From: an uncultured Actinomycetota bacterium
GTDB taxonomy: Bacteria; Actinomycetota; Geothermincolia; Geothermincolales; RBG-13-55-18
NCBI GenBank assembly: GCA_964510515.1
Contig: CAZEAU010000001.1
Location: forward strand, 100,503-164,502
DNA: 64,000 nt
Direction: 5' to 3'
Part shown: piece after piece, positions 17,005 to 59,840 of the stretch
How the letters are laid out: every line of letters begins with the position of its first letter
How positions within the stretch are numbered: position 1 is the first letter of the stretch
Made by a program: the position numbers and the translations under genes
The notes under the pieces: generated by a model
Database searches by the model: none
Told to the model about the DNA's origin: nothing
Seen by the model: the letters and a program-made list of their open reading frames with translations, nothing else

Positions 17005-17847
17005 ATGGCAGGCAGGGCAATGCTCGGCGACTGGGAGCTCATCGCGCTCTCGGACGGATGTTTCCGCCTGGATGGCGGCTCCATGTTCGGGGTCGTCCCC
17101 AAGACGCTGTGGGAGAAGAAAAAACCGGCGGACGAGAGGAACCGCATCAGGCTGGGTTTGAATTCGCTGCTGGTAAGGACGCCGCAGGCCCTGGTGCTGG
17201 TGGAGACGGGCATCGGAGACAAGCTGAACGCCAGGGAGAGGGACATCTACGGCCTGGAGAGGGAGAGCGACCTCCTGCAGGCCCTGCGGGCGGAGGGCTT
17301 CACCCCCCGGGATGTCGATTACGTCATCCATTCCCACCTCCACCTGGATCACTGCGGCTGGGCGACCAGGGAGCTCGAAGGATGCCTGCAGCCCACCTTC
17401 CCCAATGCACGATACATCGTGCAGGGCGCGGAGTGGGAGGCCGCCGCGCACCCGGACCCGAGGAGCCGCCCCTCCTACGACCGGCGCAACTTCTCCCTCC
17501 TGGAGCGGGAGGGCCTGCTGGTCGTGGTCGGCGCGGAAAGTGAAGTGATCCCGGGAATAAGGGTGCTGCGCACCGGCGGCCATACCCGCGGCCATCAGGT
17601 GGTCTATATAGAGAACGGCGGGTCGCGCTGCCTGTTTCTGGGAGACCTGGTGCCCACCAAGGCGCACATGCGGACGAATTGGCATATGGGCTGGGACCTT
17701 TTTCCCCTGCAGCTCATGCAGGCCAAAGAAAGCATCCTCGCCGCGGCGTCGCGCTCTGGCGAGATGCTCTTCTTCACCCACGAAGACGGAGACCCCTTCG
17801 CGCGCCTGGCGGGCGGCGAGGGTGAGCTCCGCCCCCTGGACGGGTAG
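17005..17847 (+). CDS. MBL-fold metallo-hydrolase
   Basis: HSHLHLDH zinc motif (HxHxDH) and downstream His/Asp ligands; lies at the in-frame tail of a spurious 734-aa ORF; ATG at 17005 after GGAGGAAGGGG. Confidence 0.7.
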   Translation: MAGRAMLGDWELIALSDGCFRLDGGSMFGVVPKTLWEKKKPADERNRIRLGLNSLLVRTPQALVLVETGIGDKLNARERDIYGLERESDLLQALRAEGFTPRDVDYVIHSHLHLDHCGWATRELEGCLQPTFPNARYIVQGAEWEAAAHPDPRSRPSYDRRNFSLLEREGLLVVVGAESEVIPGIRVLRTGGHTRGHQVVYIENGGSRCLFLGDLVPTKAHMRTNWHMGWDLFPLQLMQAKESILAAASRSGEMLFFTHEDGDPFARLAGGEGELRPLDG

Positions 17848-17980
17848 CGGCAGGCCGCCGCGGAGCCGGATTCGCCTGCCCACCCGCCGGCGTGGGCGCG
17901 CCATGCGGCGCGCGGGGCTCTGGCAATCCTCGGCGCGGATATGGCAGTATCATGGGTGAGAGGAGAGGTTCAGGCATCGG

Positions 17981-30620: not shown

Positions 30621-30949
30621 CCCCGAGGCCGGGTTCGGGAGCGGGGAAGCGGAGATGACGCAGCTCAAGGGCGGACCTGGCGCGGGTTGTGTTAAGATAG
30701 ACGCGAAGAGAGGAAATACGGGCCCGACCTTGTGCGTTTAACGCCGCAACGTATCGTTGAGCCAACACTTCGATTAAGGGAGCCGTTTTCCGGAGGTGGA
30801 CGCAATGCCCCGAACCCGGGTTGGGGACTGCGGAGACCCGAGGTAGGTGCCCACCTGCGAGGACGCAGGTTCAAGATAGCGGCGATGACGGCAAGGTGGA
30901 GCCCATTTTCCTGGCCTCAAGGGCCCCCTGAAGAGACGCCCTTGCGGGC

Positions 30950-37499: not shown

Positions 37500-37774
37500 G
37501 CCGCAGCCAGGGCGAGCCGCGCGAAAGAGCGTGGGGCCACGTCTTGCAAGCCCGCGGCAGAACCCCGGGTGCGAACTGGGAAGATATCCGAGAATGTAAA
37601 GATCAAGACTTGACCCCATGCTTTGCCGTGCTATGGCGCGGGCGGGGGGTGTTCATGTTTAATGGGGAAAGGACGAAGTATGAGCAGAAGGCCGCGGATG
37701 CAAGGCGCAGCCCGCCGCGACCCTGCAGGGGCCTGCCGGCGGCGGCGTGGGGCCGAAGGGGAGACCGCGTGGAG

Positions 37775-38263
37775 ATGAGCGAAGGAAGCGAGATACAGGG
37801 GGAACGCCTGCGCGCGCTTGCGGAGGCGTTGGGGATCATGAGCGAAGCCGGAAGGGAGATGACCGGCGATTCCGCCCCGCGGCTGATGTATTTCGCGGGC
37901 AAGGACATGGGATTGAAGGAGGCGGCCGCCTGCGATAACACGGACGACATCGAGCGCGCCCTGAGGTCCGTTTTCCCGGGCAGCGAGGAGGTGTGGAAGG
38001 TAACCCTCTGGAAGAACATGGAGGATGACGACTTCTGGGTGTACGAGCCGGAGGGGATGTTCATACGCCTCCTCTTCGAGCGATGCCCGGTGCGCGATGC
38101 CTGCCTCTCGGCGGGAGTCAGCCTGGACGGGGTCGCATGTCAGGCGGTGCACGGTTACGCCGCCGGCATGCTGGAGAGCATATTCGAACGCAGGGTGGAC
38201 TTGCGCACGGAGCACTCGGGCCCCGGAGCCTGCCTGGTGATGCTGATGACGACCCTGGAGTGA
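37775..38263 (+). CDS. V4R (vinyl-4-reductase) domain protein; alternative longer start at 37655
   Basis: C-terminal ...FERCPVRDACLSAGVSLDGVACQAVHGYAAGMLESIF resembles the V4R CxxxC...C hydrocarbon/ligand-binding domain; stop 4 nt before the hydrogenase-like small subunit. Confidence 0.5.
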   Translation: MSEGSEIQGERLRALAEALGIMSEAGREMTGDSAPRLMYFAGKDMGLKEAAACDNTDDIERALRSVFPGSEEVWKVTLWKNMEDDDFWVYEPEGMFIRLLFERCPVRDACLSAGVSLDGVACQAVHGYAAGMLESIFERRVDLRTEHSGPGACLVMLMTTLE

Positions 38264-38266
38264 GCG

Positions 38267-39169
38267 ATGCGGATAGCGATAACGTCTCTGAGTTCATGCC
38301 TGGGGTGCCAGCTGGTTTTTCTCAGCCTGGAGGATTTTCTCCTGGCGATGATAGGCGAGAACAGCGTGCTCTACGCCCCGCTTCTCGTGGACGCCAAGGA
38401 GCTCCCCGAGGCGGACCTCATCCTGGTCGAGGGGGCGGTGCGGAACGGAGACGATTATCGGCGGGCGAGGGAGGCGCGGGAGAGGGCGGGAAACCTTGTC
38501 GCCCTGGGCACCTGCGCCTGTTACGGGGGCGTGCAGGGAATGGCGAACATGGTTTCGGAACAGAGGCTGATGCGGGGCCGCTTCGGCGCGGAAGCTCGTT
38601 TCGAGGGGGAGCCCCCGGGCACGGGGCGCCTGCTGCCGCTGGACGCTTGCGTCAAGGTGGACGCCTACCTCCCCGGCTGCCCGCCTCCGCTCGGGCTCCT
38701 GAGGTCCTTCCTCGACCTCGCCCTCTCGGCTGATTCCCCCTCGCGCAGGGCCTCCAGCGTATGCGCCGAGTGCGCGGTTTCCGGGGCATCCCTGCCCCAG
38801 CCGGGCCCGCGCCGGACCGTTGAGGCGGCGGGGGAGGCGGGCAAGTGCCTGCTGGAGCAGGGTTTTCTTTGCATGGGCCCGCTGACCAGGGACGGATGCG
38901 GCGCCTTGTGCGTGAACGAGCTCGGCATACCTTGTCACGGCTGCAGGGGCCCGAGCGACGCGGTGCTTGCCGGCGGGGCCGCCGACCCCTGTGCGGAAAC
39001 GCTGCGCCGCCTGGCGAGGGCGACGGGAAGGAAGCGGGGGGATTTGCGGGAGGAGGTCGCAGACCCCGCCCACACCTTTTACAAGTTCTGCCTGGCGGAG
39101 CCGCTTCTGCGCCGCCGCAGGCCCGGGGGCACGGCGCCTTTTCTCCATCGCCTGGGGAGGAAGGGATGA
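38267..39169 (+). CDS. [NiFe]-hydrogenase small-subunit-like Fe-S protein (FrhG/MvhG/NuoB-type, three predicted clusters)
   Basis: Proximal-cluster ligand pattern SSCLGCQ...GTCACYGG...YLPGCPP (NuoB/oxidored_q6 type) plus 8 more Cys in the C-terminal half (CAECAVSG...CLLEQGFLCMGPLTRDGCGALCVNELGIPCHGCRGP). Confidence 0.7.
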   Translation: MRIAITSLSSCLGCQLVFLSLEDFLLAMIGENSVLYAPLLVDAKELPEADLILVEGAVRNGDDYRRAREARERAGNLVALGTCACYGGVQGMANMVSEQRLMRGRFGAEARFEGEPPGTGRLLPLDACVKVDAYLPGCPPPLGLLRSFLDLALSADSPSRRASSVCAECAVSGASLPQPGPRRTVEAAGEAGKCLLEQGFLCMGPLTRDGCGALCVNELGIPCHGCRGPSDAVLAGGAADPCAETLRRLARATGRKRGDLREEVADPAHTFYKFCLAEPLLRRRRPGGTAPFLHRLGRKG

Positions 39170-39208
39170 GCATGGGCGGCACGATGATGAGACGGAGCTG
39201 CTGACGGC

Positions 39209-40528
39209 ATGGCGGAGATAGTCATCGCGCCGCTGACCCGCATCCATGGAAACGCGGCCGTGAGGGTTGTCCTGGACGAGGCCGGAGTGCCGCGTGAGGC
39301 CCACTTCCAGGCATTCGGCTATCGCGGCTTCGACCATATCGCGAGGGGCGCCCACATCGACAACCTGTGCTCGCTGGTTTCGCGCATCTGCGGGGGCGAT
39401 TCCCTCTTTCACCAGCTGGCAGCGGCCATGGCGGTGGAGAACGCGCTGGCGGTGGAGGTCCCCGAGGAAGCGAAGAGGCTGCGGGAGGCGGCCTTGTGGG
39501 GACAGCTCTTCGAGCGCCATGCCGTCTCCCTCACCGTGCACAGCCTGCCGGACCTGCTCTTTCCTTCATCGCACCCCGGCCTGCGCAACATCGTCAGCAT
39601 GCACCGCGTGGACGAGGAGATAGTGAAAAGGTTCATGGCGCTGAAGTCCCTGGGGACCAGGGTGGTGGAGGAGATCGGGGGCAGGGCGGTGCACCCGCTG
39701 AACTTCATGCCCGGCGGTGCGGCCAGGGACATCGATGCGGGGCGCAGGGAGGACTTGACGGCGCGGCTCAAACAGGCCATGCCCCCGCTCATAGAGACGG
39801 GACGCCTGGTCAAGCTGCTGCTGCGCAGGAACGAGGAAGCCGTCCACTCCCTGGGCGGGGAGGCGGCGCCTTGCCTTGCCCTGCGGGGAGAGAGGGGGGT
39901 GGCGGTGAGCGCGCCCCTGCTGGCGGTCACGGGCGCCGCCGGGAAAGACGTGGACTCGGTCGGGCCGGATGAGGCGGCGGGGAGGCTGGTGGAGAGCAAT
40001 TCCGCCCACTCCCACATCAGGAGGGTCGAGATCTCCGGGCTGGGCCGGGTCAGGGTGGGGCCGCTGGCGAGGCTCAACGTCAACCGCCGCTACGGGACCC
40101 CCCGCGCGGACGAAGAGCTGGAGGAGGTCAAGGCCCACTGGGGCTTCCCGCTTCACCGCAACATGACCTCGCACGCGGCGAGGATCCTGGAGATGATCCA
40201 TGCCTGCGAGAGGATGGTCGAACTCCTCGCATTTCCCGCCGCGAAGAGGACGCGGGAGACGCTTTCCCCCGGCGCCGGAAGCGGCGTGGCGGCGCTGGAG
40301 ACGCCGGAGGGGACGCTCGTCTACGCCGTTGCCCTGGACGACGCGGGGATGGTCAAGCGGCTGGCCATAACCTCTCCGCTTCAGTTCAACCTCTGGGCTC
40401 TGGAGAAAGCGGTGCTGGAGAGCGCGCGCAACGTCCCGGGGGGGGCGCAGGCGGGTGAGGGGGTGAGCGTCCTGCTGGAGACGGCGGTGCGCGCCTTCGC
40501 GCCCTGCGTTCCATGCGGGGTGCAGTGA
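39209..40528 (+). CDS. [NiFe]-hydrogenase large-subunit homologue with divergent metal-ligand motifs
   Basis: N-terminus IAPLTRIHGNAAVRV (in place of TRIEGH); L1 motif is SRICGGDSLFH (second Cys of RxCGxCxxxH replaced by Asp); C-terminus is FAPCVPCGVQ-stop (CxxC retained, Asp to Ala, no terminal His, no C-terminal extension); 439 aa. Confidence 0.65.
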   Translation: MAEIVIAPLTRIHGNAAVRVVLDEAGVPREAHFQAFGYRGFDHIARGAHIDNLCSLVSRICGGDSLFHQLAAAMAVENALAVEVPEEAKRLREAALWGQLFERHAVSLTVHSLPDLLFPSSHPGLRNIVSMHRVDEEIVKRFMALKSLGTRVVEEIGGRAVHPLNFMPGGAARDIDAGRREDLTARLKQAMPPLIETGRLVKLLLRRNEEAVHSLGGEAAPCLALRGERGVAVSAPLLAVTGAAGKDVDSVGPDEAAGRLVESNSAHSHIRRVEISGLGRVRVGPLARLNVNRRYGTPRADEELEEVKAHWGFPLHRNMTSHAARILEMIHACERMVELLAFPAAKRTRETLSPGAGSGVAALETPEGTLVYAVALDDAGMVKRLAITSPLQFNLWALEKAVLESARNVPGGAQAGEGVSVLLETAVRAFAPCVPCGVQ

Positions 40529-40561
40529 GCGGACGCGGGGAGGATAAGGAGAGATGACGGC

Positions 40562-40861
40562 GTGGAGGGCGCGAAGAGCATGAGCGCGGAGCAGGCACTG
40601 ATAGAGATCGACCGCGTGAGGTGCGTCGGATGCTTTGAATGCATCGATGTCTGCCCTCAGGTGGCCGACCTCGAGTTCCCGGTATTCGAGCCGGGACGCG
40701 ACGGCTTTCCCAAGGTGGTCAACGAGGGCAGCTGCATACGCTGCCTGAGCTGCGAGTACGCCTGCCGCGCGGAGGCGATAAGGGTCGGGGGCGGAAGCCG
40801 CGCCGACCGTCCCGGCAGGCTGGAGGCAGGGGCGGAGCGGAAATGCCGCTCCACGTTCTGA
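40562..40861 (+). CDS. 2x[4Fe-4S] ferredoxin
   Basis: Two CxxCxxCxxxCP motifs (CVGCFECIDVCP; CIRCLSCEYAC); GTG start after AGGATAAGGAGAG. Confidence 0.75.
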   Translation: MEGAKSMSAEQALIEIDRVRCVGCFECIDVCPQVADLEFPVFEPGRDGFPKVVNEGSCIRCLSCEYACRAEAIRVGGGSRADRPGRLEAGAERKCRSTF

Positions 40862-40973
40862 GCGCGCCGGGCCGCTGCCCGCCCGGGGTGCCGGGGGCGC
40901 GACCGGCGGCCGCGGCGCAGGCGGGTGAGGGGGTTCCGGTCAAGAATAACGGCGAAATGACGATACCTATCCA

Positions 40974-41002
40974 TTGGAGCCATGATTTAACTTTAGTATA
41001 AT
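40974..41002 (+). promoter_or_regulatory. candidate sigma70 promoter (TTGGAG-17 nt-TATAAT) for the Roadblock-PATAN-GTPase operon
   Basis: Consensus -10 TATAAT in an AT-rich island inside the 285-nt gap between the ferredoxin and the first Roadblock gene. Confidence 0.35.
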
Positions 41003-41145
41003 CATGCAACAGAATTAACGGATTAAAACCGCGATAAGGTAATGTCGATAGTAGTTGTGAGGACCGGGCACGGAATTGCCGGAAGGCCTGAGCGAGAAAA
41101 AAGGGGGAAAGGCCTCTTTCTCCCCGGGGCAGGAGGTGGTATGGA

Positions 41146-41499
41146 TTGCCCGATTTGAGAAAAGCCCTTGAGGAACTGGTCGCCACCGGGACCGTGCGTG
41201 CCGCCCTGGTGGTGGGGAGGGACGGCTTCATCATCGAGACGGCGGGAGAAGATGCGGCCCAACTCGAGGCCGTCGGCGCCATCGCGCCCAGCTCCCTGGG
41301 CGCCGCCGAGGTCATAGGCCTGGAGTTGGCGCAGGGCCCCATGGCCCAGGCGATGTTCGAGTTCGAGAAGGGCGCGATACTCATGAGCGCGGTGAGCGTG
41401 GATGCCATCCTCGTCTCCATCCTTCCCACGAGCGCGAACCTGGGCAAGGCGAGATACGAGATCCGCAAATATCTCCCCGCGATAGAGGCGTCCCTGTGA
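41146..41499 (+). CDS. Roadblock/LC7 (MglB/CvnB-like) domain protein 1
   Basis: 117 aa; TTG start after AGGAGG; LVVGRDGFIIETAGED...AAEVIGLELAQG...GAILMSAVSVDAILVSIL pattern of the Roadblock/LC7 fold. Confidence 0.75.
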   Translation: MPDLRKALEELVATGTVRAALVVGRDGFIIETAGEDAAQLEAVGAIAPSSLGAAEVIGLELAQGPMAQAMFEFEKGAILMSAVSVDAILVSILPTSANLGKARYEIRKYLPAIEASL

Positions 41500-41557: not shown

Positions 41558-41941
41558 ATGGTTTCGGAAAGAATAGAGAGGATGAACGCCGCCCTCAGGG
41601 ATCTGCGCTCGGGGATGCAGGAGATCGAGGCGGCCGTCCTCATCAGCGCGGACGCCATGGCCCTGGCTTCGGATATCTCCGACGAGGCCGACGAGGAGAT
41701 GATCGGCGCGCTTTCCGCCTCGGTGCTCGGCATGGGCGAGCGGGCGGCGCGCGACCTGAGGAGGGGTGAGCTCGAGCAGGTGTATATAAAGGGGGACCAG
41801 GGCTACCTTCTGCTCCTGCAATGCGGGCCCGATGCCCTTCTCTCCCTTCTGGTCAGGCCGGAAGCGAAGCTGGGCGTGGTCTTCATGGAGGGAAAACGGA
41901 CCGCCGAGGAGCTGGCAAGGCTTTTCGAGCGGGAGATTTGA
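41558..41941 (+). CDS. Roadblock/LC7 domain protein 2
   Basis: 127 aa; same architecture (AAVLISADAMALASDI...YIKGDQGYLLLLQCGPDALLSLLV). Confidence 0.75.
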   Translation: MVSERIERMNAALRDLRSGMQEIEAAVLISADAMALASDISDEADEEMIGALSASVLGMGERAARDLRRGELEQVYIKGDQGYLLLLQCGPDALLSLLVRPEAKLGVVFMEGKRTAEELARLFEREI

Positions 41942-41973
41942 CGCGACTGCTATTCGTATGGGAGGTCGATCGC

Positions 41974-42372
41974 TTGGCGGGTTCTAGGGAGGAGAGACTC
42001 AGGAGCGCTCTCAACGAACTGGTTTCGAGGTCCGCCGAAGTGGATGCGGCGGCCGTGGTGAGCATGGACGGCCTGGTCATGGCCTCGGTTCTTCCCAATA
42101 CCCTCGAGGAGGACAGGCTGGGGGCCATGTCGGCCGCGCTGCTCAGCCTCGGAGAGAGGACCTCCGAGGAGCTGGGCAGGGGAGAGCTCGCGCAGGTTTT
42201 CGTGGAGGGCAACGCGGGATACGTCTTCCTCATGGCCGCCGGGGAAGACGCGGTCCTGACCGCGCTGGTGCGCAAGGGGAGCAAGCTGGGCCTGGTCCTC
42301 TACGACGTCAAGGGGGCGGCTAAAAGGATAGCGGAGATCATAAAAGCGGAATTCCGCATCGAATACGATTGA
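41974..42372 (+). CDS. Roadblock/LC7 domain protein 3 (TTG start inferred; ORF track shows a longer frame from 41821)
   Basis: AAVVSMDGLVMASVLPN...VFVEGNAGYVFLMAAGEDAVLTALV; GGGAGG RBS 8 nt before the TTG at 41974. Confidence 0.65.
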   Translation: MAGSREERLRSALNELVSRSAEVDAAAVVSMDGLVMASVLPNTLEEDRLGAMSAALLSLGERTSEELGRGELAQVFVEGNAGYVFLMAAGEDAVLTALVRKGSKLGLVLYDVKGAAKRIAEIIKAEFRIEYD

Positions 42373-42468: not shown

Positions 42469-45400
42469 ATGGCTTTGAAAGGTAGCTTGAAGGACTTCAG
42501 CATCCCCGACCTCTTCCAGTTGTTGAACTTCGGGAAGAAGAACGGGACGCTCAACCTCACGCGGGGACAGGCAAGAGGGTACATATGTTTCCGCAATGGC
42601 GAGGTCTTCTTCGCCACTACCAACTGGAAGAGGCAATCGCTTGGCCTCAAGCTGCTCAACGCCGGGATAGTGAGCAAGGCCCAGATCGACGAGGCGTTGC
42701 AGCTCCAGAGGACCTCGGCACGGGGGCAGCGCCTGGGGCAGCTGCTCATCCGCGAGGGCCATATCACCATGTCCCAGCTGGAAGTCTTTATAGAGGAACA
42801 AATACAGGATGCGGTTTTCGAGATGCTGCGCTGGACGGACGGCGACTTCGATTTCCAGCCGGGCGCAGTCTTCCCGGAAGAGGATATCGGCCTCTCCATA
42901 AGCACCGAGGAACTGATCATGGAGGGATCGAGGCGCCTGGACGAGTGGAACCGCATCGAGAAGAAGATCCCCAGCCTGGAGGCCGTGTTCAGGATGACAT
43001 CCATGCACGGAAGGGAGGCGGCGCAGATAAGCCTCACTCCCGAGGAGTGGATGGTCCTCACCCACGTGGACGGCGATAAGGACGTCAGGCAGATAGTCGA
43101 ACTCACCGGCATGAGCACTCTGCATGCCTGCAAGATACTCTACGGTCTCCTGGGGGCAGGGTTGCTGGAGAGTGTCGCCCCCGTCCAGGACGAGAAGGAG
43201 GCCGACCTCAGGCTGGGGAGGCTGGCGGAGGAATTGGAAAGAGCGGAGGAGGGGGCTGGAGAGCCGCCCGCCCCGGGCGAGGTCCCGGAGCTGGAGCCAG
43301 AACAGCTCGAGGTGCTCGCTCACGGGGGAGGCGCGGTGGCGGAAACGAAGGAGTCTGTGCCCCCCGCGACCACGGGAGAGGAATGGGAGGTAGCGGACGC
43401 CCTGGGCGAGGTGTTCGAAAGGCTGGAGGTGGCCGCGCAGGAGGATGTGCTCACGGCGGCTGACAGGGACGAGGCGGCGGAGCCCCACACTGCGGCGCCC
43501 GATGCGGAGGAAGCCGGGGCGCTCGCAATCGAGATAGGGGCCGAGGCGGGGGAGGAGATACTCGTCGAGGAGATCGTCTTTTCTCCGCCCGACGCGGGCC
43601 CCATTGAGGTGGAGGAAGCGGATGAGGCGGTGAGGGAGAGCGCGGCCGGCCTGCCTCCTGCCGGGGGGCCGGCCGAGGCGGGGATGCCGACCGCCGTGCC
43701 CTGGCTCCCGGGCTCGCGGCGCATCCTGGAGGAGGAGAAGCGGAAAGAGGAAGAGTATATCCGCAGGATGAAGGAAGCTGCCCTGGAGGACTCGGTGGAG
43801 TCGCAGGAGACGCTCAGGATCGACCGCAAGGAGGCCGAGCTGGAGGAGCTGAAAAAGAAGATCAGCTCTCTTCTCCCCGAGGGCATGGGGTTGGACGAGG
43901 TTGAGGAGGAGCCGCGCGAGGAGGCGCCGCAGCGGGCGCTCGACGAGAGCGCACAGAAGATCACGGGGGAGAGCGTTGAGGCCCGGGAAGCCAAGAGGGA
44001 GTACCTGGAGAAGAAATTCGGAAAAGCGGAGAAGCTTGCCGGGGAGGGCGAGATCGCGGGATCCGAACCCGAGGAGATCCCCGAGGAGTGGAAAAGCCAC
44101 CTGGAGAAGAGCGCGCCGAGGGAGCAAGGGGCCGACCTTTACGGGGCTCCGGCCGGGCGAGAAGGCGTGGGCATCGACTTGGAGAAGATCCTGGGCGGCG
44201 CCTTCCGGGGAGCGGCGGTCGCGGAGGGGGAAGGGGCGGAGCCGCAGGGGTTCACCGCCGCATGGGAGCCGCTGGAGGCCCCGAGGCAACCCGAGTGGAG
44301 CGGGGATGCTCCCGGTGGCGAGCACGCCGCGGCAGGAATCCTGGCGGAAGCGTGGGAGAGGCCCGCCGGGGGCGACGAAACCCTCGAGGACGCCATGATG
44401 ACCCCCGCCCTGGAGAGCATAATGCTCGAGGACCTGCCCGAGGGCACGGCCGCAGGCGTTGCCCCTATGGATGCCGCCGCGCTTCCAGCGGAGGCGGAGG
44501 AGGGAGCGGGAGAGCCGCCCATGGCGGCACCCCGGGATGCCTTGACCGAGCCCCCGGCGATGTCCATGCTCGAGAGGGCCATGCTGGAGGACATCTCCGC
44601 GGCCGAGACGCCGCTGCCGGGGGAGGACGTTTTTGCGCCGCAAGCGCAGCCGGAGGCGCTGTCGTCGGCCTCGCAGGAAACATTTTTCGAGATTGACGAG
44701 GACGTGCGGGCGGGCGTGGGGGGCGCGGCGGAAGCCCCACTGGAGGAGTCGTTCGCCGGGGAGCCGCATGAACTGCAGGTGGAGGCGGCGGGTGAGGGCC
44801 TCGAGTCACCGGGCTGCGTGGACTTCGCGGACGAGATAGCCGCCCTGGAAAAGGAGATGCTCGCCGAGCACGCCCTGCCGCATGAACTGAAGATGGAGGT
44901 GCCGCGGGAGGCGATGCCGCCCCAGACGATATTGCGCGGCGATGTGCCGCCCTCCCTGGAGGAACTGGACAAAGTGATCACCGCAGGCGAGGAGGAGACG
45001 CTGCCGGCAACCGAACCGGATGTGGCATCGCATGATGCATGGGGGAGGATGGCCGAGGAGGTGCGCGAAACGGGTTGGCCGCAAGGCGAGACCGATGCGC
45101 CTGCCCCTTACCGCCTTCTGGAGGAGCTGGCGGAGGCGGCCCCCGAGGACATATACATACCGCCGCCGCCTTTCGAGAGCGCCGAGCCCACCTATGCGCC
45201 GCCCATGCAGCAGATGCCGGAGCTAGAGATAAGCGAGCCGGAGTATGCGCCGCCGCCCATGCAGCAGATGCCGGAGCTCGAGGTGAGCGAGCCGGAGTAT
45301 GCGCCGCCCATGCAGCAGATGCCGGAGCTCGAGATGCCCGAGCCCATAGAGCGGCTGGAAGCGCTGGCGGAGGCCTCGGAGGTATCCCCCGAGGAGGCGT

Positions 45401-46020
45401 ATGTGCCGCCGCTGCTTCTGGAGAGCGCCGAGCCCACATATGCTGAGCCGGCGCAAGCGATGCCGGAGCTCGAGGCAAGCGAGCCGGAGTATGCGCCGCC
45501 ACCCATGCAGCAGATGCCGGAGCTCGAGATGCCCGAGCCCATAGAGCGGCTGGAAGCGCTGGCGGAGGCCTCGGAGGTATCCCCCGAGGAGGCGTATGTG
45601 CCGCCGCTGCTTCTGGAGAGCGCCGAGCCCACATATGCTGAGCCGGCGCAAGCGATGCCGGAGTTCGAGGTGAGCGAGCCGGAGTATGCGCCGCCGCCCC
45701 AAGGCCGCGAGACCGCGCCGGCCGCGGCCCCCACCGTGCCCCGCGAGGAAGGAGCGGGCGGGTATGCGGAGGAAGAGGGCTACGGCGAGGATCACGAATT
45801 TGATATGGGCAATTATTCCCTGGAGAGGGAGCTTGCGGAGCTCACCGGGGCCTCGATGCCGCAGCCGACAAAGAAAATAAAGATCCCGCTGAAGCCGAAA
45901 GGAGAAGACGGCGATGTGGAGGAAATAGATAAGGGCAAGCCGCTCCCGAAGGTTAAGCGGGATAAGGCGGTGACGAAGAGCATAATCATGCGCATCATTG
46001 ACGGCATCAAAAGACTGTAA
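42469..46020 (+). CDS. PATAN/DUF4388-domain protein with about 850-aa acidic Glu/Pro/Ala-rich low-complexity tail containing tandem repeats
   Basis: N-terminal about 110 aa ([49 protein letters not shown]) match DUF4388/PATAN; remainder E-rich with repeated EYAPP(P)MQQMPELE and two 65-aa near-identical units. Confidence 0.7.
45331..45720 (+). repeat. in-frame tandem direct repeat, 2 x 195 nt (about 95% identical over the first 170 nt), preceded by three 51-54-nt sub-repeats (about 45180-45340)
   Basis: gagatgcccgagcccatagagcggctggaagcgctggcggaggcctcggaggtatcccccgaggaggcgtatgtgccgccgctgcttctggagagcgccgagcccacatatgctgagccggcgcaagcgatgccggag occurs at 45331 and again at 45526. Confidence 0.85.
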
Positions 46021-46023: not shown

Positions 46024-46566
46024 GTGGGTGCTCAATTGCGATCCTTCAAAATCGTAGTCACCGGGCCGTTCAGCGCGGGCAAGACGACCTTCATCAAGAG
46101 CGTGAGCGAGATATCCATCGTCTCCACGGAGAGGTCGATATCCGATTCCACGCGGCGCGTGAAAGCCGAGACGACGGTGGCCATGGACTTCGGCAGGATC
46201 ACCATCTCCAAAGACATCGTGCTCTATCTTTTCGGGACGCCGGGCCAGGAACGTTTCGATTTCATGTGGCAGATCCTTTCCGAAGGCATGCTGGGCTACA
46301 TCCTGATGCTCGACGCGAGCCGCCCGGAGACCTACGAGGAGGGAAAGCGCATACTGGAGTTTTTCGCAACTCTCTCGGAGGCGCCTTTCGTCGTCGGGGT
46401 GACCCGCATCGGGAGCGAGGGCGATGCCGCCGCGGTGGAGAGGATAAGGCAGGATATGAGCGTTGATGGAGATGTCCAGATCATACCCTGCGATACCAGA
46501 CAGAAAGAGGACGTGAAGAGAGTCCTCCTCAGCCTGCTCTACGACATACTCAAGACCCTCGACTGA
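46024..46566 (+). CDS. small Ras-like GTPase of the MglA/CvnD (conservon subunit D) family
   Basis: P-loop GPFSAGKTTF, TTVAMDFGRI switch I region, LFGTPGQERF switch II (DxxGQ); 180 aa; start 4 nt after the PATAN gene stop. Confidence 0.8.
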   Translation: MGAQLRSFKIVVTGPFSAGKTTFIKSVSEISIVSTERSISDSTRRVKAETTVAMDFGRITISKDIVLYLFGTPGQERFDFMWQILSEGMLGYILMLDASRPETYEEGKRILEFFATLSEAPFVVGVTRIGSEGDAAAVERIRQDMSVDGDVQIIPCDTRQKEDVKRVLLSLLYDILKTLD

Positions 46567-46641
46567 TCGGGCCCTCGCCCGGGATAGGCTGGCGCGGCAT
46601 GAGGCGCCGGGGGTAATGGCATGGGGGGACGCGGGGGGCAT

Positions 46642-47502
46642 ATGAGGATCAACGGCGAAACCCGACTGGTAGGCATCATCGGCCACGAGATCGGCTACAC
46701 CATGTCACCGGCGATGCACAATGCCGCGTTCGACGCACTGGGCATGAACTGGGCCTACGTCCCCCTGCGCGTCCCCCCGCAGCAGTTGCAGCCCGCCCTG
46801 CACGGTCTGCGCGCCTGCGGCTTCAGGGGATTCAACGTGACTATCCCCCACAAGGTGGAGAGCGTGCGTTATCTGGATGAGACCAGGGGGCCGTCTGCCT
46901 TGCTTGGGGCGGTCAACACCGTGGTCAACGAGGGGGGAAGGCTGCTCGGCTACAATACCGACGTCGAGGGCTTTCGCTCCTTCCTGGCTGAGGCCGGCGT
47001 GCCCGCGGGCGGCTCATGCGCGCTGCTCTTGGGCGCGGGCGGCGCGGCGCGCGCCGTCGCGCTCGCGCTGGCGCAGGCGGGAGCCGGGCGCATCTACGTC
47101 ATCAATCGCACGCCGCAGCGTGCGCAGGAGCTGGCGGCCCTGTTAAAGAGGGCGGCGCCGGGGACCGAGATATCTGTAAGGACGTACGACAGCGTGGGCT
47201 CGCTGGTCCTGCGGGAATGTGACCTGGCGATCAACTGTATCCCCGCCGCCGGCTCTGGGGGGGTGGCCCTGCCCCTGGACTACGAGGCTTTTGGCGAGGG
47301 GAAGTGGGCGATAGACATCGGGTATGCGGGGGCGGGGTCGGCATTCCTGAGGGAAGCCGCCGCTCGGGGGGCGAAGACGGCCGACGGCGCGGGCATGCTC
47401 GTCCACCAGGCCGCCGCCTCCTTTCGCCTGTGGACGGGAAGGCCGGCCCCGCTGGGCGAGATGAAGAGCGCCTGCCTCGGCGAGCCGGCCGGAGAAGGAT
47501 AA
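46642..47502 (+). CDS. aroE: shikimate dehydrogenase AroE
   Basis: LVGIIGHEIGYTMSPAMHNAAF...GFNVTIPHK...GYNTDVEGF...LLGAGGAARAV Rossmann motif. Confidence 0.92.
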   Translation: MRINGETRLVGIIGHEIGYTMSPAMHNAAFDALGMNWAYVPLRVPPQQLQPALHGLRACGFRGFNVTIPHKVESVRYLDETRGPSALLGAVNTVVNEGGRLLGYNTDVEGFRSFLAEAGVPAGGSCALLLGAGGAARAVALALAQAGAGRIYVINRTPQRAQELAALLKRAAPGTEISVRTYDSVGSLVLRECDLAINCIPAAGSGGVALPLDYEAFGEGKWAIDIGYAGAGSAFLREAAARGAKTADGAGMLVHQAAASFRLWTGRPAPLGEMKSACLGEPAGEG

Positions 47503-47521: not shown

Positions 47522-49189
47522 ATGCAGAAACCGAAGAAAGAAAAGCTGGGACAGATACTCATCAGGAACCGCATCATCGATGAAGAGCAGCTCCGGCAGG
47601 CCTTGGAGCGGCAGGCGGAGACGGGCGAATCGTTGGGCAGGGTTCTCATCGAATTGAAGATGGTGAGCGAGGGCGCCCTGACCTCCGTGCTCGCCCGCCA
47701 GATAGGGTTGAAATTCGCCGACCTCGGAACCTTCGACGTTGACATCTCCGCCTGCTCCCTGGTGAGCGCGGAGGTAGCCAGGCGCTACACCCTCATCCCG
47801 GTGGGCTTCAACGGGGACCGCCTGATGGTGGCCATGGCCGACCCCACCAACGTCTTCGCCCTGGACGACGTCCGTATCATGACCGGGATGCAGGTCGAGC
47901 CGCTCGTGGCCACCAAGGAGGATATCGTCGCCGCCATCAACCGCTACTGCCGCTCGGATACGGACATGGACATAACCACGGAAGATTTGGTGGAGGGCGA
48001 GGTGGAGGAGGACGTCGAAGCGGTTGTCGATGACGCTCCCATAGTGAAGTACGTGAACCTGCTCATCTCCGAGGCGGTCAACGACCGCGCCGCGGACGTG
48101 CACATAGAGCCCATGGAGCATGACGTGAGGGTGCGCTTCCGCATCGACGGGGTGCTGCACGAGATACGCAGGAATCCCAGGCAGATCCACCCCGGCGTGG
48201 TGGCCAGGATAAAGGTCATGGCGGACATGAACATAGCGGAGAAGCGCCTGCCCCAGGACGGCAGGGCTTCGGTGGACATCAGGGGCAAACAGATCGACCT
48301 GCGCGTGGCCTCGCTTCCCACCATACACGGCGAAAAGGTGGTGCTGCGCGTCCTCGACAAGAGCGCATCGCTGATGAGCCTGCAGGACCTGGGTTTCAGC
48401 GAGGACATCCTGGAGGTGTATTCGCGCAGCTTCCACAAGCCCTACGGCACCATCCTGGTCACCGGCCCCACCGGCAGCGGCAAGACCACCACCCTCTACG
48501 CCACCCTCAACGTGCTCAACAGCATCAAGCAGAACATCATCACCGTGGAGGACCCGGTGGAGTATCGCCTGCCCCTCATCAATCAGGTGCAGGTGCATTA
48601 CAAGGCCGGCCTGACCTTCAGCGCCGCGCTGCGCTCCATCCTGAGATGCGACCCCGATATCGTCATGATCGGCGAGATCCGCGACCCGGAATCAGCCCAG
48701 ATAGCCATCGAGTCGGCGCTTACCGGGCATCTCGTCCTCTCAACCCTGCATACCAACGACGCCCCCAGCGCGCTGACCCGCCTGCTGGAGATGGGCATAG
48801 AGCCTTTCCTCATCGCATCGGCGGTGGACTGCGTGAGCTCGCAGAGGCTGGCGCGAAAGCTGTGCGAGCGCTGCAAGGAGGCCTATGAGCCCGACCCGGA
48901 ATACCTGGAGAAGGTCAGGTTCAGCTGGGAAAACGGGCAGGAAAGAGTCCTTTACCGGCCCAGAGGCTGCCCCGCCTGCAACAACACCGGCTACAAGGGA
49001 AGGGTGGGCGTTTACGAGGTGCTGGAGGTTACGGAGGATATAGAACGCCTGGTGGCCAAGAACGCCCCCCACGTCGAGATCGCCGCGGCGGCGCGCGCGG
49101 AGGGGATGAGGACCATGCGTGAAGAGGGCTTCGTCAAGGTCAGGGAGGGCATGACTTACATCGACGAGGTCTTGAGGGTCATCATGTGA
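47522..49189 (+). CDS. pilB: type IV pilus assembly (extension) ATPase PilB/GspE family
   Basis: N-terminal GSPII domain, Walker A GPTGSGKTT, Asp/His boxes, C-terminal tetracysteine CPAC...zinc motif. Confidence 0.92.
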   Translation: MQKPKKEKLGQILIRNRIIDEEQLRQALERQAETGESLGRVLIELKMVSEGALTSVLARQIGLKFADLGTFDVDISACSLVSAEVARRYTLIPVGFNGDRLMVAMADPTNVFALDDVRIMTGMQVEPLVATKEDIVAAINRYCRSDTDMDITTEDLVEGEVEEDVEAVVDDAPIVKYVNLLISEAVNDRAADVHIEPMEHDVRVRFRIDGVLHEIRRNPRQIHPGVVARIKVMADMNIAEKRLPQDGRASVDIRGKQIDLRVASLPTIHGEKVVLRVLDKSASLMSLQDLGFSEDILEVYSRSFHKPYGTILVTGPTGSGKTTTLYATLNVLNSIKQNIITVEDPVEYRLPLINQVQVHYKAGLTFSAALRSILRCDPDIVMIGEIRDPESAQIAIESALTGHLVLSTLHTNDAPSALTRLLEMGIEPFLIASAVDCVSSQRLARKLCERCKEAYEPDPEYLEKVRFSWENGQERVLYRPRGCPACNNTGYKGRVGVYEVLEVTEDIERLVAKNAPHVEIAAAARAEGMRTMREEGFVKVREGMTYIDEVLRVIM

Positions 49190-49408
49190 GGGGTCATCAT
49201 CTGAGCGCGCCCGCATATTGGGGTGAAAGAATCGGCGTCCGCGGCCGATATCAAGATGGGACGGGCAGGCAGGCGGCCGCGCAGCACAACCTGGGAACAT
49301 GGAGCGGGGCGGGTGGGAGGAGCGCTCTTCCCCACACGGCCCAAGGGTACGGCCCGAGCACACGGCCCGAGCGCACGGTACGGGAGGAACGGGAGAGGAG
49401 GAAGGGCT

Positions 49409-50473
49409 TTGACCAAGCTTGATATCAATGAGCTTCTGGAAGAGGTGCTGGTGAGGGGGGCCTCCGACCTGCACCTCACCGTCGGGACCCCGCCGGTCAT
49501 GCGCATCAACGGCACCCTTATGCGCCTGGAGGAATATCCTCGCCTTACATCCAACGATACCCGCGACATGGTCTACAGCATACTCGCCGCGAGGCAGAGG
49601 GAGCAGTTGGAGAGCAACCTCGAATACGATCTCTCCTACTCGGTGCCCGGAAGCGCGCGTTTCCGCGTCAACGCCTATTTTCAGAGGAACAGCATCGGGG
49701 CGGCCTTCCGCATCATCCCCTATCGCATCAAGTCGGTGGAGGAGCTGCAGCTCCCCCAGGTCATCCACGAGTTCTGCATGCTGCCGCGCGGCTTCGTCCT
49801 CGTCACCGGGCCGACCGGTCAGGGCAAGTCCACCTCGCTCGCGGCCATGATCAACATCATCAACGAGACCCGCAACCTGCATATCATCACCGTCGAGGAC
49901 CCCATTGAGTTCCTGCACGTGCACAAGAGTTGCATCGTGAACCAGAGGGAGGTGGGGGGGGACACGCATTCCTTTTCCAATGCTCTCAAGTACGTCCTGC
50001 GCCAGGATCCGGACGTCATCCTGGTGGGCGAGATGAGGGACCTGGAGACCATCTCCACCGCGCTCACCGCGGCGGAGACCGGGCACCTGGTGTTCGCGAC
50101 CCTGCATACCCAGGACGCTCCGCAGACCATAGACCGCATCATCGACGTCTTTCCCACCTATCAGCAGCAGCAGGTGCGTATGCAGCTGGCCAGCACCATA
50201 CAGGCCATTGTCACCCAACAGCTCCTGCCCACTAAGGACGGGCAGTCCCGCATACCGGCGGTGGAGGTGATGGTGGCGACCTCGGCCATCCGCAACCTCA
50301 TCCGCGAGGCCAAGGCGCACCAGATATATTCCTCCATGCAGGCGGGAGGGCAGTACAAGATGCAGACCATGGACCACTCCATCGCGGCGCTCTTCAAGCG
50401 CGGGCTGGTCTCCTACGAGGTGGCCATGGCGAGGTGCAGCAACCGCGAGGAGATGGAGCGGCTGATCGGCTGA
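49409..50473 (+). CDS. pilT: type IV pilus retraction ATPase PilT (TTG start after GGAGAGGAGGAAGGG)
   Basis: LEEVLVRGASDLHLTVGTPPVMRINGTL, Walker A GPTGQGKST, AIRNLIRE motif. Confidence 0.92.
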   Translation: MTKLDINELLEEVLVRGASDLHLTVGTPPVMRINGTLMRLEEYPRLTSNDTRDMVYSILAARQREQLESNLEYDLSYSVPGSARFRVNAYFQRNSIGAAFRIIPYRIKSVEELQLPQVIHEFCMLPRGFVLVTGPTGQGKSTSLAAMINIINETRNLHIITVEDPIEFLHVHKSCIVNQREVGGDTHSFSNALKYVLRQDPDVILVGEMRDLETISTALTAAETGHLVFATLHTQDAPQTIDRIIDVFPTYQQQQVRMQLASTIQAIVTQQLLPTKDGQSRIPAVEVMVATSAIRNLIREAKAHQIYSSMQAGGQYKMQTMDHSIAALFKRGLVSYEVAMARCSNREEMERLIG

Positions 50474-50540
50474 CGGCGGCATGTCCGCCGCGGGAGGTCC
50501 CCGTTCGCCGGGGAAGGTGATCGGCGGGGCGTGCTAGAAT

Positions 50541-50549
50541 CTCTTTGAA
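50541..50549 (+). promoter_or_regulatory. candidate extended -10 promoter element (TGcTAGAAT) upstream of pilC
   Basis: Read directly in the pilT-pilC gap. Confidence 0.2.
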
Positions 50550-50715
50550 AGGAAAGCTTCGCCGGGGGTAAAGAAATGGGGCGCCGGGAACGATACTAAT
50601 TGCGGTCGGTTGACGGCGGCGGCGGTGCGGAGATAGAAGCGGCCCGGATGCGCGCGAGATGACGGCGAAAGGATGTCCTCAAGCGTTCGGAAGCGCCGAG
50701 AAAAGGAGAGAGGCG

Positions 50716-51939
50716 GTGGCTCAAACCTATTCATACAAGGTGAGGGACCGGCAGGGCAAGGTCATCTCCGGCAAGCTCGAGGCGGAAAACGTGAGCACCG
50801 TATCGCAGCGCCTGCGCGAGATGGGCTATTTCGTCATCGAGGTCGAGGAGGAGAAGGTATCCCTGGGCAAGAAGGAGCTGCACATCTTCAAGCCCAAGGT
50901 CAAGGGCAAGGACATCACCATCTTCACCCGCCAGTTCGCGACCATGATCAACGCCGGCCTGCCCCTGGTGAAATGCCTGAACATCCTCTCGGAGCAGACG
51001 GAGAGCCCGGTGCTCACGGAGGTCATCTCGGACGTGCAGCACGAGGTGGAGATGGGGCGCTCCCTCTCTGAGGCCATGGCCAAGCACCCCGAGGTCTTCA
51101 AGGAGCTGTACTCCAGCATGGTCAAGGCGGGAGAGATAGGCGGCGTGCTCGACGACGTGCTGCTGCGCATAGCCACCACCCTGGAGAGCGAGGACGAGAT
51201 CCGGCGCCGCATCAAATCGGCATTGACCTATCCCATAGCCATGCTGGGCATATCCGCCCTGCTCCTGGTGGTGATGCTCGTCTTCGTGGTGCCCACCTTC
51301 GAGAAGATGTTCGCGGACATGGGGGCGACGATGCCCATCCTGACCAGGGTTATCATGAGCTTCAGCAATTTCCTGGTGAGCTGGAAGGGGGCGCTGTTCA
51401 TACTGGCCGTGATAGGGGGCGTGTTGCTCCTGCGCCGCTGGATCAAGACGCCGGGCGGCCGCAAGAAACTCGACGCCGTGAAGCTGAAGATGCCCGTATT
51501 CGGGGACCTGTTCCACAAGATGTCCCTCTCCCGCTTCTCCCGCACCCTGGGGACACTGGTGGCCAGCGGCGTGCCCATTCTGCAGGCCCTGGAGATAACC
51601 TCGAAGACGGTGGGGAATGTGCTGGTGGCGGAGGCCGTGGACAACGTTCGTGCGGGGGTCAAGGAGGGGGACTCCATCGCCAGGCCCCTGGGCCAGAGCG
51701 ATCTCTTCCCCCCCATGGTGACCCAGATGCTGGCCATCGGGGAGGAGACCGGAGCCCTGGATACCATGCTCAACAAGGTCTCGGACTTCTACGACTCGGA
51801 GATCTCCTCGACCGTCGAGGCGCTGACCTCCCTGCTGGAGCCGCTGATGATCGTCGTTCTGGGCCTGGTCGTGGGGATCATCGTCATCGCCCTCTATATG
51901 CCGATATTCTCGATGATAACCCAGTTTACCGGGGAGTAG
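50716..51939 (+). CDS. pilC: type IV pilus inner-membrane platform protein PilC/GspF family (GTG start)
   Basis: Two T2SSF repeats, full-length PilC similarity. Confidence 0.9.
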   Translation: MAQTYSYKVRDRQGKVISGKLEAENVSTVSQRLREMGYFVIEVEEEKVSLGKKELHIFKPKVKGKDITIFTRQFATMINAGLPLVKCLNILSEQTESPVLTEVISDVQHEVEMGRSLSEAMAKHPEVFKELYSSMVKAGEIGGVLDDVLLRIATTLESEDEIRRRIKSALTYPIAMLGISALLLVVMLVFVVPTFEKMFADMGATMPILTRVIMSFSNFLVSWKGALFILAVIGGVLLLRRWIKTPGGRKKLDAVKLKMPVFGDLFHKMSLSRFSRTLGTLVASGVPILQALEITSKTVGNVLVAEAVDNVRAGVKEGDSIARPLGQSDLFPPMVTQMLAIGEETGALDTMLNKVSDFYDSEISSTVEALTSLLEPLMIVVLGLVVGIIVIALYMPIFSMITQFTGE

Positions 51940-58937: not shown

Positions 58938-59162
58938 TGCGCAAGGCCCGCCGAGGCGGCGAAACAGCCTGGCGGAAAAGGTATATTCGCAGGCAGATGG
59001 CCCTGCGTAACATTACCGTAACAACATTCACACATATTTATCTTGGCATGCCTAAAGGGCGGCCTTACAATTTTCGATAGACGGATTGAAGCATTCCTGC
59101 CTTCCGCGGCCTGTGCGGGCACCGGGCAGGGATGGGGATGCGCGGAGCGAGAGAGACCTTTT

Positions 59163-59738
59163 ATGGAAGCGAAGGGTTCGAGAAGGAGGAAAGGCTGCCT
59201 GGCGAGGCCGGGGGCGGAAGGGCCGCTCCGCACCTCCCAGGAGGGCTTCACGCTCATCGAGCTGTCCATCGTGGTGATGATACTGGGCATCATCCTGACC
59301 ATCGCGGGGCTGAACTACGCCAACATCAGCAGAGGGATCAACATGGACGGCGCAAAGAAACAGATAGAGGCCGCCCTGAACCAGGCGAAGACGGCCGCGC
59401 GGCAGGAGAATGTCAGCTATCGCATGATGGTCTATCCCTCCAGTCATGCCTCTCACCCCAACAGTTACGAATTCCTGCATAACGTCGAGGACGGAGGTAC
59501 GTGGGAGATGACCGCAGTGGACCTGACCGCATCCGGCGAGAGGGTCAACGGCGGGTCCGACCGCTGGCTGGTGCAACTGGAGGGCAACGTCCAGATAAGC
59601 GGCGGCGAGGTGATGGAGATAACCTTCAGGCCCGTAGGTACAATCATGGATGTCACTCCGGCGACAATCGAGCTGAGGAGCGGGAACCAGGCGGGGAGCG
59701 TCTCCGTAGACGCGCTGGGGAGGGTAACGTTGCATTGA
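59163..59738 (+). CDS. type IV pilin-like protein with long (about 28-aa) leader and prepilin-peptidase-type N-terminus
   Basis: ...QEG|FTLIELSIVVMILGIILTIAGL class III signal/N-methylation motif. Confidence 0.7.
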   Translation: MEAKGSRRRKGCLARPGAEGPLRTSQEGFTLIELSIVVMILGIILTIAGLNYANISRGINMDGAKKQIEAALNQAKTAARQENVSYRMMVYPSSHASHPNSYEFLHNVEDGGTWEMTAVDLTASGERVNGGSDRWLVQLEGNVQISGGEVMEITFRPVGTIMDVTPATIELRSGNQAGSVSVDALGRVTLH

Positions 59739-59840
59739 CGGATATGAGATATGAGAAGAGATTTTGATGACAAACGGGGTTATCGTGCAGGCAAACATCA
59801 GCATCGGGGGCTTCGGGCAAAAAGGGAGGCGGTTCCTTTG

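Follow-up and report, generated by a model that had tools for sequence, protein, structure and literature searches.

A hydrogenase-like operon with a conserved Cys3Asp motif beside Roadblock, PATAN and type IV pilus genes in an uncultured Actinomycetota bacterium

A 64-kb stretch of DNA from an uncultured Actinomycetota bacterium (contig CAZEAU010000001.1, positions 100,503 to 164,502; hereafter the window) encodes a four-gene operon in which a hydrogenase-type small subunit and a [NiFe]-hydrogenase-like large subunit are flanked by a V4R-like protein and a 2x[4Fe-4S] ferredoxin. As judged from sequence and predicted structure, the encoded complex is most probably not a standard H2-turnover enzyme. 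We give about an even chance to the reading that it is a sensory module of hydrogenase descent, whose metal site is a non-canonical Cys3Asp one and whose output goes to a motility switch. A preliminary description of this DNA, made from its letters and ORFs, had left two alternatives: a hydrogenase with an odd metal site, or a non-catalytic redox or sensor module. The sensor alternative is now the better supported of the two, and the odd-site hydrogenase is disfavoured, because the pendant Arg and the proton-relay Glu have been lost and because V4R-type hydrogenase operons are recurrently linked to methyl-accepting chemotaxis proteins (MCPs), PATAN and Roadblock proteins, receiver (REC) domains and kinases. 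The active-site make-up and signalling context of this conserved module are unreported in the literature searched.

The window has a GC content of ~66%, and nearly all of its genes lie on the + strand. The four open reading frames (ORFs) are found at the coordinates first described for them:

37775..38263, +, V4R-like protein, first gene of the operon (ORF of 162 amino acids, aa)
38267..39169, +, hydrogenase-type small subunit (300-aa ORF)
39209..40528, +, [NiFe]-hydrogenase-like large subunit (439-aa ORF)
40562..40861, alternative start 40580, +, 2x[4Fe-4S] ferredoxin (93-99 aa; Pfam Fer4 families)

Gene callers on identical contigs place the ferredoxin start at 40580. The V4R-like stop lies 3 nt before the small subunit start; the gap had earlier been given as 4 nt, from coordinates that agree with these. 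Spacers of 275 nt upstream and 284 nt downstream flank the operon in the window, and the corresponding spacers in orthologous loci measure roughly 190-510 nt. A single V4R-small-large-ferredoxin operon, as proposed earlier for the V4R and ferredoxin genes, is supported by a gene order and tight spacing that are constant in every orthologous locus, and by conserved upstream motifs.

Evidence that the large subunit belongs with the [NiFe]-hydrogenases, as its initial alignment had suggested, came from profile, sequence and fold comparisons. Pfam NiFeSe_Hases (PF00374) matches the N-terminal part only, with 45.3 bits against a cut-off of 25.8, and the best NCBIfam model, VhuA, matches over the full length with 198.6 bits against a cut-off of 800. 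The nearest PDB sequences are the large subunits of Vhu/Mvh (phmmer E 7e-54 to 5e-48) and of HydABCSL. An AlphaFold2 (AF2) model, built on 65 sequences, has a predicted local distance difference test score (pLDDT) of 92.6, and Foldseek aligns it to MvhA (5odc_F) with a template modelling score (TM) of 0.96. Together, the Vhu/Mvh sequence matches and the structural similarity to MvhA argue that the pair is a genuine descendant of group-3-type cytoplasmic [NiFe]-hydrogenases. The small subunit matches Pfam Oxidored_q6 (81 bits) and, over its full length, NCBIfam VhuG (174.1 bits against a cut-off of 450); it has no Tat signal. Twelve of its 16 Cys are invariant in 27 family members and 10 canonical relatives. 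These are the proximal-cluster residues C11, C14, C83 and C138, and eight further residues (C166, C169, C194, C202, C211, C215, C223 and C226) that suffice for medial and distal [4Fe-4S] clusters. The earlier count of a complete proximal set plus eight additional Cys is borne out, and the protein carries the proximal, medial and distal Cys sets of the Mvh/Vhu type. Two CxxCxxCxxxC(P) motifs are present in the window ferredoxin and in all four translated orthologues, and the ferredoxin gene occupies the same position in every locus with enough sequence.

The best match of the pair in both sequence and structure is the cytoplasmic group 3c MvhAG/VhuAG (PDB 5ODC, 9SFI); the window small subunit aligns along the whole VhuG model, and its 12 invariant Cys fit three [4Fe-4S] sites. 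However, the pair differs from Mvh/Vhu in scoring far below the NCBIfam cut-offs and in having no MvhD/HdrABC gene in any neighbourhood. It differs also in that the bridging Cys is Asp, the pendant Arg, proton-relay Glu and DPC Asp are replaced, and neither a C-terminal extension nor a protease gene is present. Assignment to Vhu/Mvh, Frh or sulfhydrogenase was rejected because all NCBIfam scores are far under their cut-offs, and assignment to NuoD because the match is marginal (E 3e-7 over 80 residues).

Active-site residues were mapped by aligning E. coli HyaB with the family and its canonical relatives. In Hyd-1 numbering, with the HyaB residue first and the window residue second, the correspondence is as follows:

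E28 to H13, the proton-relay Glu
C76 to C61, kept
C79 to D64, the bridging Cys
H83 to H68, kept
D118 to R103
R509 to E367, the pendant Arg (PRG to PEG)
H514 to Y372
T532 to L391
D574 to A431, the Asp of DPC
C576 and C579 to C433 and C436, kept
H582 to Q439

The motifs TRIHGN, RICGGDSLFH and APCVPCGVQ-stop read as reported initially, and the replacement of the bridging Cys by Asp holds in the HyaB alignment. Three changed hallmark positions had been recognised; these are confirmed, and the changes from PRG to PEG, from His to Tyr, from T532 to Leu and from D118 to Arg had been missed. The absence of both the L2 Asp and the terminal His is correct for the window (A431 and Q439), but the His is present in 96% of the family, the Gln being particular to the window genome and one relative. 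At the four positions where a catalytic [NiFe] large subunit has Cys, the window protein has three Cys and Asp64; it has neither the pendant Arg of PRG nor the proton-relay Glu of RxEGH, and no C-terminal extension. HyaB T532 lies in the VVPTTWN motif, and we take it, from alignment and not superposition, to correspond to the Ser/Thr of Desulfovibrio enzymes that forms a hydrogen bond with a cyanide ligand. In the same HyaB alignment, the changes R509 to Glu and D118 to Arg resemble a charge swap. A Cys3Asp site with Glu and Arg nearby could hold either a mononuclear centre or a binuclear one of another kind. E28 and the pendant arginine, which is strictly conserved, are described as the two crucial outer-sphere residues, and the R509K variant retains ~1% activity (PMC10430524).

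These changes are not confined to the window genome. A homologue search returned ~75 protein clusters at 44-100% identity, followed by a sharp drop to canonical proteins at ~32%. The named family members are all Actinomycetota metagenome-assembled genomes (MAGs), including Candidatus (Ca.) Solincola, and a scan of GTDB species representatives found 19 species, including Ca. Solincola spp. and Ca. Geothermincola primus. Position frequencies were compared between 74 family sequences, diverging to 44% identity, and 45 canonical group-3 sequences. In the family, D64 is present in 99%, E367 and L391 in 100%, and Y372, A431 and R103 in 97% each. E102 (99%), H111 (100%) and E136 (100%) are likewise conserved at positions where the canonical consensus differs. 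Position 42, Glu in canonical sequences, is Asp or Glu (Asp in 58%), and the L0 Glu position, H13 in the window, is variable. The residues R59, C61, G62, H68, E364, E367, G368, L391, N394, P432, C433 and C436 are family-invariant. That D64 and E367 are nearly fixed across sequences down to 44% identity argues against chance or sequencing error.

The same conservation bears on whether the module is a decaying relic or structural pseudo-enzyme that has no functional metal site and serves only as a scaffold. Several catalytic residues have been lost, the genes evolve faster than their neighbours, and many other degenerate group-3-like large subunits occur in metagenomes, all of which would fit decay. 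Nevertheless, the four ORFs are intact in every locus examined (19 GTDB species, ~75 clusters), and little or no variation is seen in the remaining ligands, D64, E367, the 12 Fe-S Cys or the ferredoxin motifs, a pattern unlike that of the NuoD-type relatives, which dropped ligands. A relic is therefore very improbable; intact ORFs and conserved ligands indicate a metal-bearing, electron-conducting complex under selection rather than decay.

An alternative is that the complex is a working H2-activating hydrogenase with an unusual Ni-Fe or Ni-only site, with Asp64 standing in for the bridging thiolate and E367/R103 for the R509/D118 canopy pair. H68 and three of the four ligands are invariant, the electron relay is complete, and the Mg-site residues are mostly kept (Asp or Glu at position 42; the terminal His in most of the family, Gln in the window). 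The charge swap could also keep a guanidinium close by. The missing C-terminal extension fits such an enzyme as well, since functional sensors and Ech/CooH-type enzymes have likewise lost it. Against this, the proton-relay Glu is gone and its position is variable, the T532 and D574 matches are Leu and Ala, and divergence is accelerated relative to the neighbouring genes. No characterised [NiFe]-hydrogenase with a carboxylate at the bridging-Cys position turned up in the literature searched. The pendant Arg is replaced, and even an Arg-to-Lys change costs ~99% of activity (PMC10430524). Taken together, these data make a working hydrogenase quite improbable.

Maturation genes contribute little to this question. 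The earlier statement that the 64 kb contain no hyp or protease gene (hycI and hupD included) was upheld by a six-frame motif scan, Pfam, synteny and reading of translations, Pfam being applied to otherwise unidentified ORFs and the remaining translations being read directly. No hyp maturation genes were found within +-10 kb of orthologous loci. Relatives of the lineage carry canonical group 1/3b/3c/3d [NiFe]-hydrogenases (PMC7325909), and hence the lineage probably has Hyp proteins. The hyp genes may therefore lie elsewhere, and their local absence is weak evidence.

Deeper orthologues indicate how the site arose. Within the one orthologous, syntenic locus, the large subunit falls into four classes by its motifs:

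P0136/L032 (syntenic locus), four Cys, PRG..H; Q in L0, IPC in L5; ends at His
P0127/L028 (syntenic locus), four Cys, PQG
Subclade B (Ca. Geothermincola and relatives), four Cys, PEG..Y, APC, extra Cys in PLQCN
Subclade A (window) and P0122, Asp64

All four classes are without a C-terminal extension and a neighbouring protease. Given that the deeper syntenic orthologues have four Cys, and one of them PRG, the site was remodelled stepwise. In the proposed sequence, the proton-relay Glu and the DPC Asp would have been lost first, the pendant Arg would then have changed to Gln and on to Glu, and the bridging Cys would have become Asp last, with the three-cluster relay and the ferredoxin intact throughout. 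The extra conserved Cys of subclade B (L006, L019, L021, L022, L023 and P0121) lies in PLQCN, which reads PLQFN in subclade A, and the choice between PLQCN and PLQFN co-varies with Cys or Asp at position 64.

Identity to the L032 orthologue is 31% for the large subunit, 33% for the small subunit and 30% for the V4R protein, compared with 51% for alaS, 52% for the GTPase and 67% for Roadblock-3, figures from which the module is seen to diverge faster than its neighbours. An exhaustive profile search also returned other, unrelated degenerate group-3-like large subunits in metagenomes (P0132, P0143, P0153, P0167, P0172 and P0175), each of which has lost at least one Ni-Fe Cys ligand, in different ways. 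Ligand loss in the hydrogenase fold is thus not unique to this family.

The first gene of the operon encodes a protein that was originally called V4R. This identification holds at the level of fold and falls short in Pfam: V4R (PF02830) gives no match for the window protein, and four orthologues score below threshold (E 0.017-0.13; 12.8-15.6 bits against a cut-off of 31). An AF2 model with a pLDDT of 87.8 is matched by Foldseek to the phenol-sensing domains of PoxR, MopR and DmpR (probability 1.00, E 1e-5, TM ~0.57), with further matches to Bet3/TRAPP subunits and YslB. The orthologues are 159-164 aa long, and four residues (C104, C122, H147 and C153) do not vary even among homologues of 30% identity. 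Many homologues bear the Joint Genome Institute (JGI) label 'predicted hydrocarbon binding protein'.

The V4R domains of PoxR, MopR and DmpR bind small aromatic ligands, which is consistent with a neofunctionalised oxidoreductase. In such an enzyme, ferredoxin electrons would pass through the three clusters to a new metal site, where some compound other than H+/H2 would be reduced or oxidised. A small hydrophobic ligand would be supplied by the V4R protein, and the adjacency to Roadblock genes would be incidental. The intact relay and ferredoxin, the operon's own conserved upstream motif, and the new invariant residues that line the old active site (D64, E102, R103, H111, E136, E367, Y372 and L391) are all compatible with this account. 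However, no substrate-related or metabolic gene is tied to the module in any locus, among the canonical V4R-type relatives the linkage is to MCP, PATAN and Roadblock genes rather than metabolic ones, and fast divergence is unusual for a core metabolic enzyme. We regard an oxidoreductase as rather unlikely.

Additional evidence for a signalling role came from canonical hydrogenase operons elsewhere. The most distant V4R homologues (~30% identity; profile E ~1e-17) head such operons in three unrelated contigs, with the form V4R1-small-large-ferredoxin-[second V4R-like]-HycI-soluble poly-HAMP MCP, followed in one case by Hpt-REC-kinase. The large subunits of these contigs are fully canonical, and a C-terminal extension of ~25 aa is seen in L029-L031. 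One cluster was named as a Geobacter sp. MAG; the V4R-associated canonical operons occur in metagenomes and in Geobacter-like or Gemmatimonadota-like MAGs. A metagenome scan with V4R sequences matched 191 loci, of which 80 were examined, and the order V4R1-S-L-Fd-V4R2-HycI (S, small subunit; L, large subunit; Fd, ferredoxin) was found in every examined locus with enough sequence. Forty-five loci extended at least 1.5 kb beyond HycI. An MCP gene lies directly downstream in 21 of these, and 33 have at least one of MCP, Roadblock, REC and Ser/Thr kinase. Large subunits in the examined loci are canonical in 50 of 53 cases, with TRIEGH, RxCGxCxxxH, PRGxxxH and DPCxxCxxH. Locus L033 has the order PATAN-Ser/Thr kinase-V4R-S-L-[Fd fused to V4R2]-Roadblock-...-HycI. 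Divergently upstream of the canonical operon in L086 lie genes for a PAS-GAF histidine kinase, an NtrC-type regulator and a REC-PATAN-Roadblock fusion. The relevant features of these loci are:

L086 2878-4101, -, REC, PATAN (DUF4388) and Roadblock/LC7 in a single protein
L029 11142-11642; L030 11105-11560; L031 11117-11575; L033 9417-10130 (ferredoxin-fused), second, more distant V4R-like protein after the ferredoxin

The canonical operons thus share with the window operon the order V4R-small-large-ferredoxin, a homologous V4R protein, the same 12 Fe-S Cys and PATAN/Roadblock neighbours, whereas their canonical large subunit, C-terminal extension, HycI and second V4R protein all have no counterpart in the window operon. 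By sequence and context, the canonical members of the V4R-associated clade look like signalling hydrogenases. No description of V4R-linked [NiFe]-hydrogenases, of MCP-linked [NiFe]-hydrogenases, of a hydrogenase with PATAN/Roadblock partners, or of the window family was found in the literature searched, which did not extend to subscription journals.

In the window, the operon is followed by genes of the same signalling types and by type IV pilus genes:

41146..41499, +, Roadblock/LC7 (MglB-like) protein 1 (Pfam Robl_LC7 E 5e-11; syntenic in all loci)
41558..41941, +, Roadblock/LC7 protein 2 (Pfam Robl_LC7 E 5e-15)
41938..42372, +, Roadblock/LC7 protein 3 (Pfam Robl_LC7 E 1.6e-17; gene call on identical contig L001)
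42469..46020, +, PATAN (DUF4388) protein with a long acidic repeat-bearing tail (Pfam DUF4388 E 6.8e-37)
46024..46566, +, MglA-like small Ras-superfamily GTPase (Pfam ATP_bind_1 E 3.8e-16, Ras E 5.8e-6)
46621-47502, aroE, between the GTPase gene and pilB
47522..51939, +, pilB, pilT and pilC, type IV pilus motor genes (synteny with Pfam-annotated loci, T2SSE; T2SSF)

Genes pilM and pilO follow pilB, pilT and pilC. Roadblock-3 is 42% identical to the Roadblock protein encoded beside the canonical V4R-type hydrogenase in L033. The combination of Roadblock/LC7, DUF4388 and Ras-like GTPase domains is conserved in all loci, and the order alaS-ruvX-mltG-[V4R-S-L-Fd]-Roadblock(x2-3)-PATAN-MglA-like GTPase-aroE-pilB-pilT is constant in every one. 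The module lies directly upstream of the Roadblock-PATAN-GTPase and pilB/pilT genes in 19 of 19 GTDB species and in the other loci, and no genome with the module but without the Roadblock-PATAN-GTPase and pilus genes was found in this set. PATAN-MglB-MglA neighbourhoods have been described previously (PMC4316618), and PATAN regulators bind the type IV pilus motor, according to a preprint (bioRxiv 10.1101/2021.06.11.447907). The window shares the gene types of known MglA-MglB(Roadblock)-PATAN switches, followed by pilB/pilT, and differs from them in the giant size and acidity of its PATAN protein and in its three Roadblock paralogues. In the literature searched, no hydrogenase-like input to MglA/Roadblock/PATAN switches was found to be reported. 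The acidic tail of the PATAN protein contains tandem repeats at 45193-45695 (195-bp x2.2 and 54-bp x2.9), and its orthologues range from 851 to 1231 aa.

Two conserved intergenic blocks and one hairpin bear on transcription of these genes:

37652..37681, +, candidate promoter/operator motif of the four-gene operon, AT-rich and GTTCATGTTTAAT..GAAATATCAC-like, ~100 nt before the V4R start
40939..41050, +, conserved AT-rich block (~110 nt) with TATAAT and small hairpins in the ferredoxin-Roadblock spacer (7 orthologous spacers aligned)
41104-41125, hairpin just before the Roadblock-1 ribosome-binding site

Among 7 aligned orthologous loci, the first of these (~30 nt) is the sole invariant block of the mltG-V4R spacer and is a candidate promoter or operator of the operon. 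A sigma-54 promoter upstream of the V4R gene was rejected by eye, since the conserved motif does not match GG-N10-GC, and a general promoter and terminator scan was uninformative. The block at 40939-41050, AT-rich in a genome of 67% GC, is probably the Roadblock unit's own promoter and leader, in which case its connection with the hydrogenase-like operon would involve the proteins and not co-transcription.

These findings led to the proposal of a sensory mechanism. The module would be a soluble four-gene complex descended from a group-3-like (Mvh/Hox-like) [NiFe]-hydrogenase within an undescribed V4R-associated clade, and the version in Geothermincolia-type Actinomycetota would have shed the C-terminal extension along with HycI and the second V4R protein. 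The Cys3Asp site, ancestrally Cys4 and wired to the ferredoxin, would report redox state or a small ligand, and the V4R protein would pass the state of the site to a switch of three Roadblock proteins, PATAN and the MglA-like GTPase that governs type IV pilus motility. Homology, fold, the fixed substitutions, the intact Fe-S ligands, synteny and the recurrent linkage to signalling genes are shown by the data; that NiFe(CN)2CO chemistry has been lost, that the complex senses, and by which path and to what output it would signal, we infer.

The proposal has parallels with the group 2b regulatory hydrogenases HoxBC/HupUV, where a hydrogenase likewise serves as signal input and its genes lie beside signal-transduction genes. 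The group 2b large subunit also has no C-terminal extension. The lineage differs, since the closest relatives of the window protein belong to group 3, not group 2. The site of the window protein is altered, whereas in group 2b the pendant Arg, the L0 Glu and all four Cys are retained and the signal goes to the HoxJ kinase; the window neighbours are Roadblock, PATAN and small GTPase genes, with no adjacent histidine kinase. NuoD/NuoB of complex I and Ehr/Mbx-type modules are likewise subunit pairs that have moved past standard NiFe chemistry while keeping the proximal cluster. In those modules, which associate with membrane subunits, the Cys ligands were lost and a pocket for quinone or another use was acquired, whereas the window module has three of four ligands invariant and three clusters, and is soluble with no membrane subunits nearby.

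Several observations weigh against a sensory role. Hyp genes may be present in the genome outside the window (PMC7325909), and subclade B, which keeps four Cys, may hold a Ni-Fe site. The Roadblock unit, having its own conserved promoter-like block, is probably not co-transcribed with the module. Synteny in this lineage extends over the entire neighbourhood and takes in housekeeping genes, and adjacency within the lineage could be inertia. Among the canonical V4R-type loci, 12 of 45 have no signalling neighbour, and the sigma-54 activator and kinase beside some of them could simply control hydrogenase expression. In a crude neighbour-joining tree of large subunits, which has long branches, the MCP-linked clade is not sister to the Actinomycetota family. 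Inertia would not explain, however, why unrelated genomes repeatedly pair V4R-type hydrogenases with a V4R adaptor, PATAN and Roadblock, which suggests that the adjacency in the window is more than that.

A broader model can be drawn from the same material. The V4R protein (Bet3 fold), three Roadblocks and the GTPase would form a prokaryotic counterpart of the eukaryotic GTPase regulators of TRAPP/Ragulator type, gated by a hydrogenase-derived Fe-S complex as a redox- or gas-controlled switch of pilus motility; the Cys3Asp/Glu site would be an undescribed metal centre, and the MCP-linked canonical relatives would be unrecognised [NiFe] sensors for H2 chemotaxis. This combination is, as a whole, unlikely. 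If the sensory reading is true, the [NiFe]-hydrogenase fold would have been re-used by a third route, besides those of complex I and the group 2b sensors; the orthologues would provide a natural series of stepwise active-site dismantling, and the module would be a first candidate input for MglA/Roadblock/PATAN motility switches. The canonical relatives would be a candidate [NiFe] sensor for H2 chemotaxis. Ideas about the outer coordination sphere could also be tested on this natural Cys3Asp site, in which Glu substitutes for the pendant Arg. Sequences without four-Cys motifs are usually filtered out of hydrogenase surveys (e.g. PMC7325909), so this clade and the wider V4R-associated clade from which it comes went unnoticed. 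A 'group 3e' of Anaerolinea proposed in a preprint may or may not be related to the window family.

Other features of the window lie apart from the operon. A 6S/SsrS RNA gene is found at 30719-30906 (+; Rfam RF00013, 61.7 bits against a gathering score of 46.4), between an acetyl-CoA hydrolase/GNAT ORF and an MgsA-like ATPase gene. An (AAG)14 run at 16829-16870 (+) encodes a 14-lysine C-terminal tail on the SecF-like ORF 15653-16873, and the following 1.1 kb (16874-17980), before a RelA-like gene, contain no + strand ORF with gene-like composition. At 59000-64000 GC falls to ~57%; this region, which may be a variable pilus-tip or adhesin region, includes a 730-aa ORF at 59751-61943 without a Pfam match and a PilX_N-like ORF that runs from 62521 to the window end.

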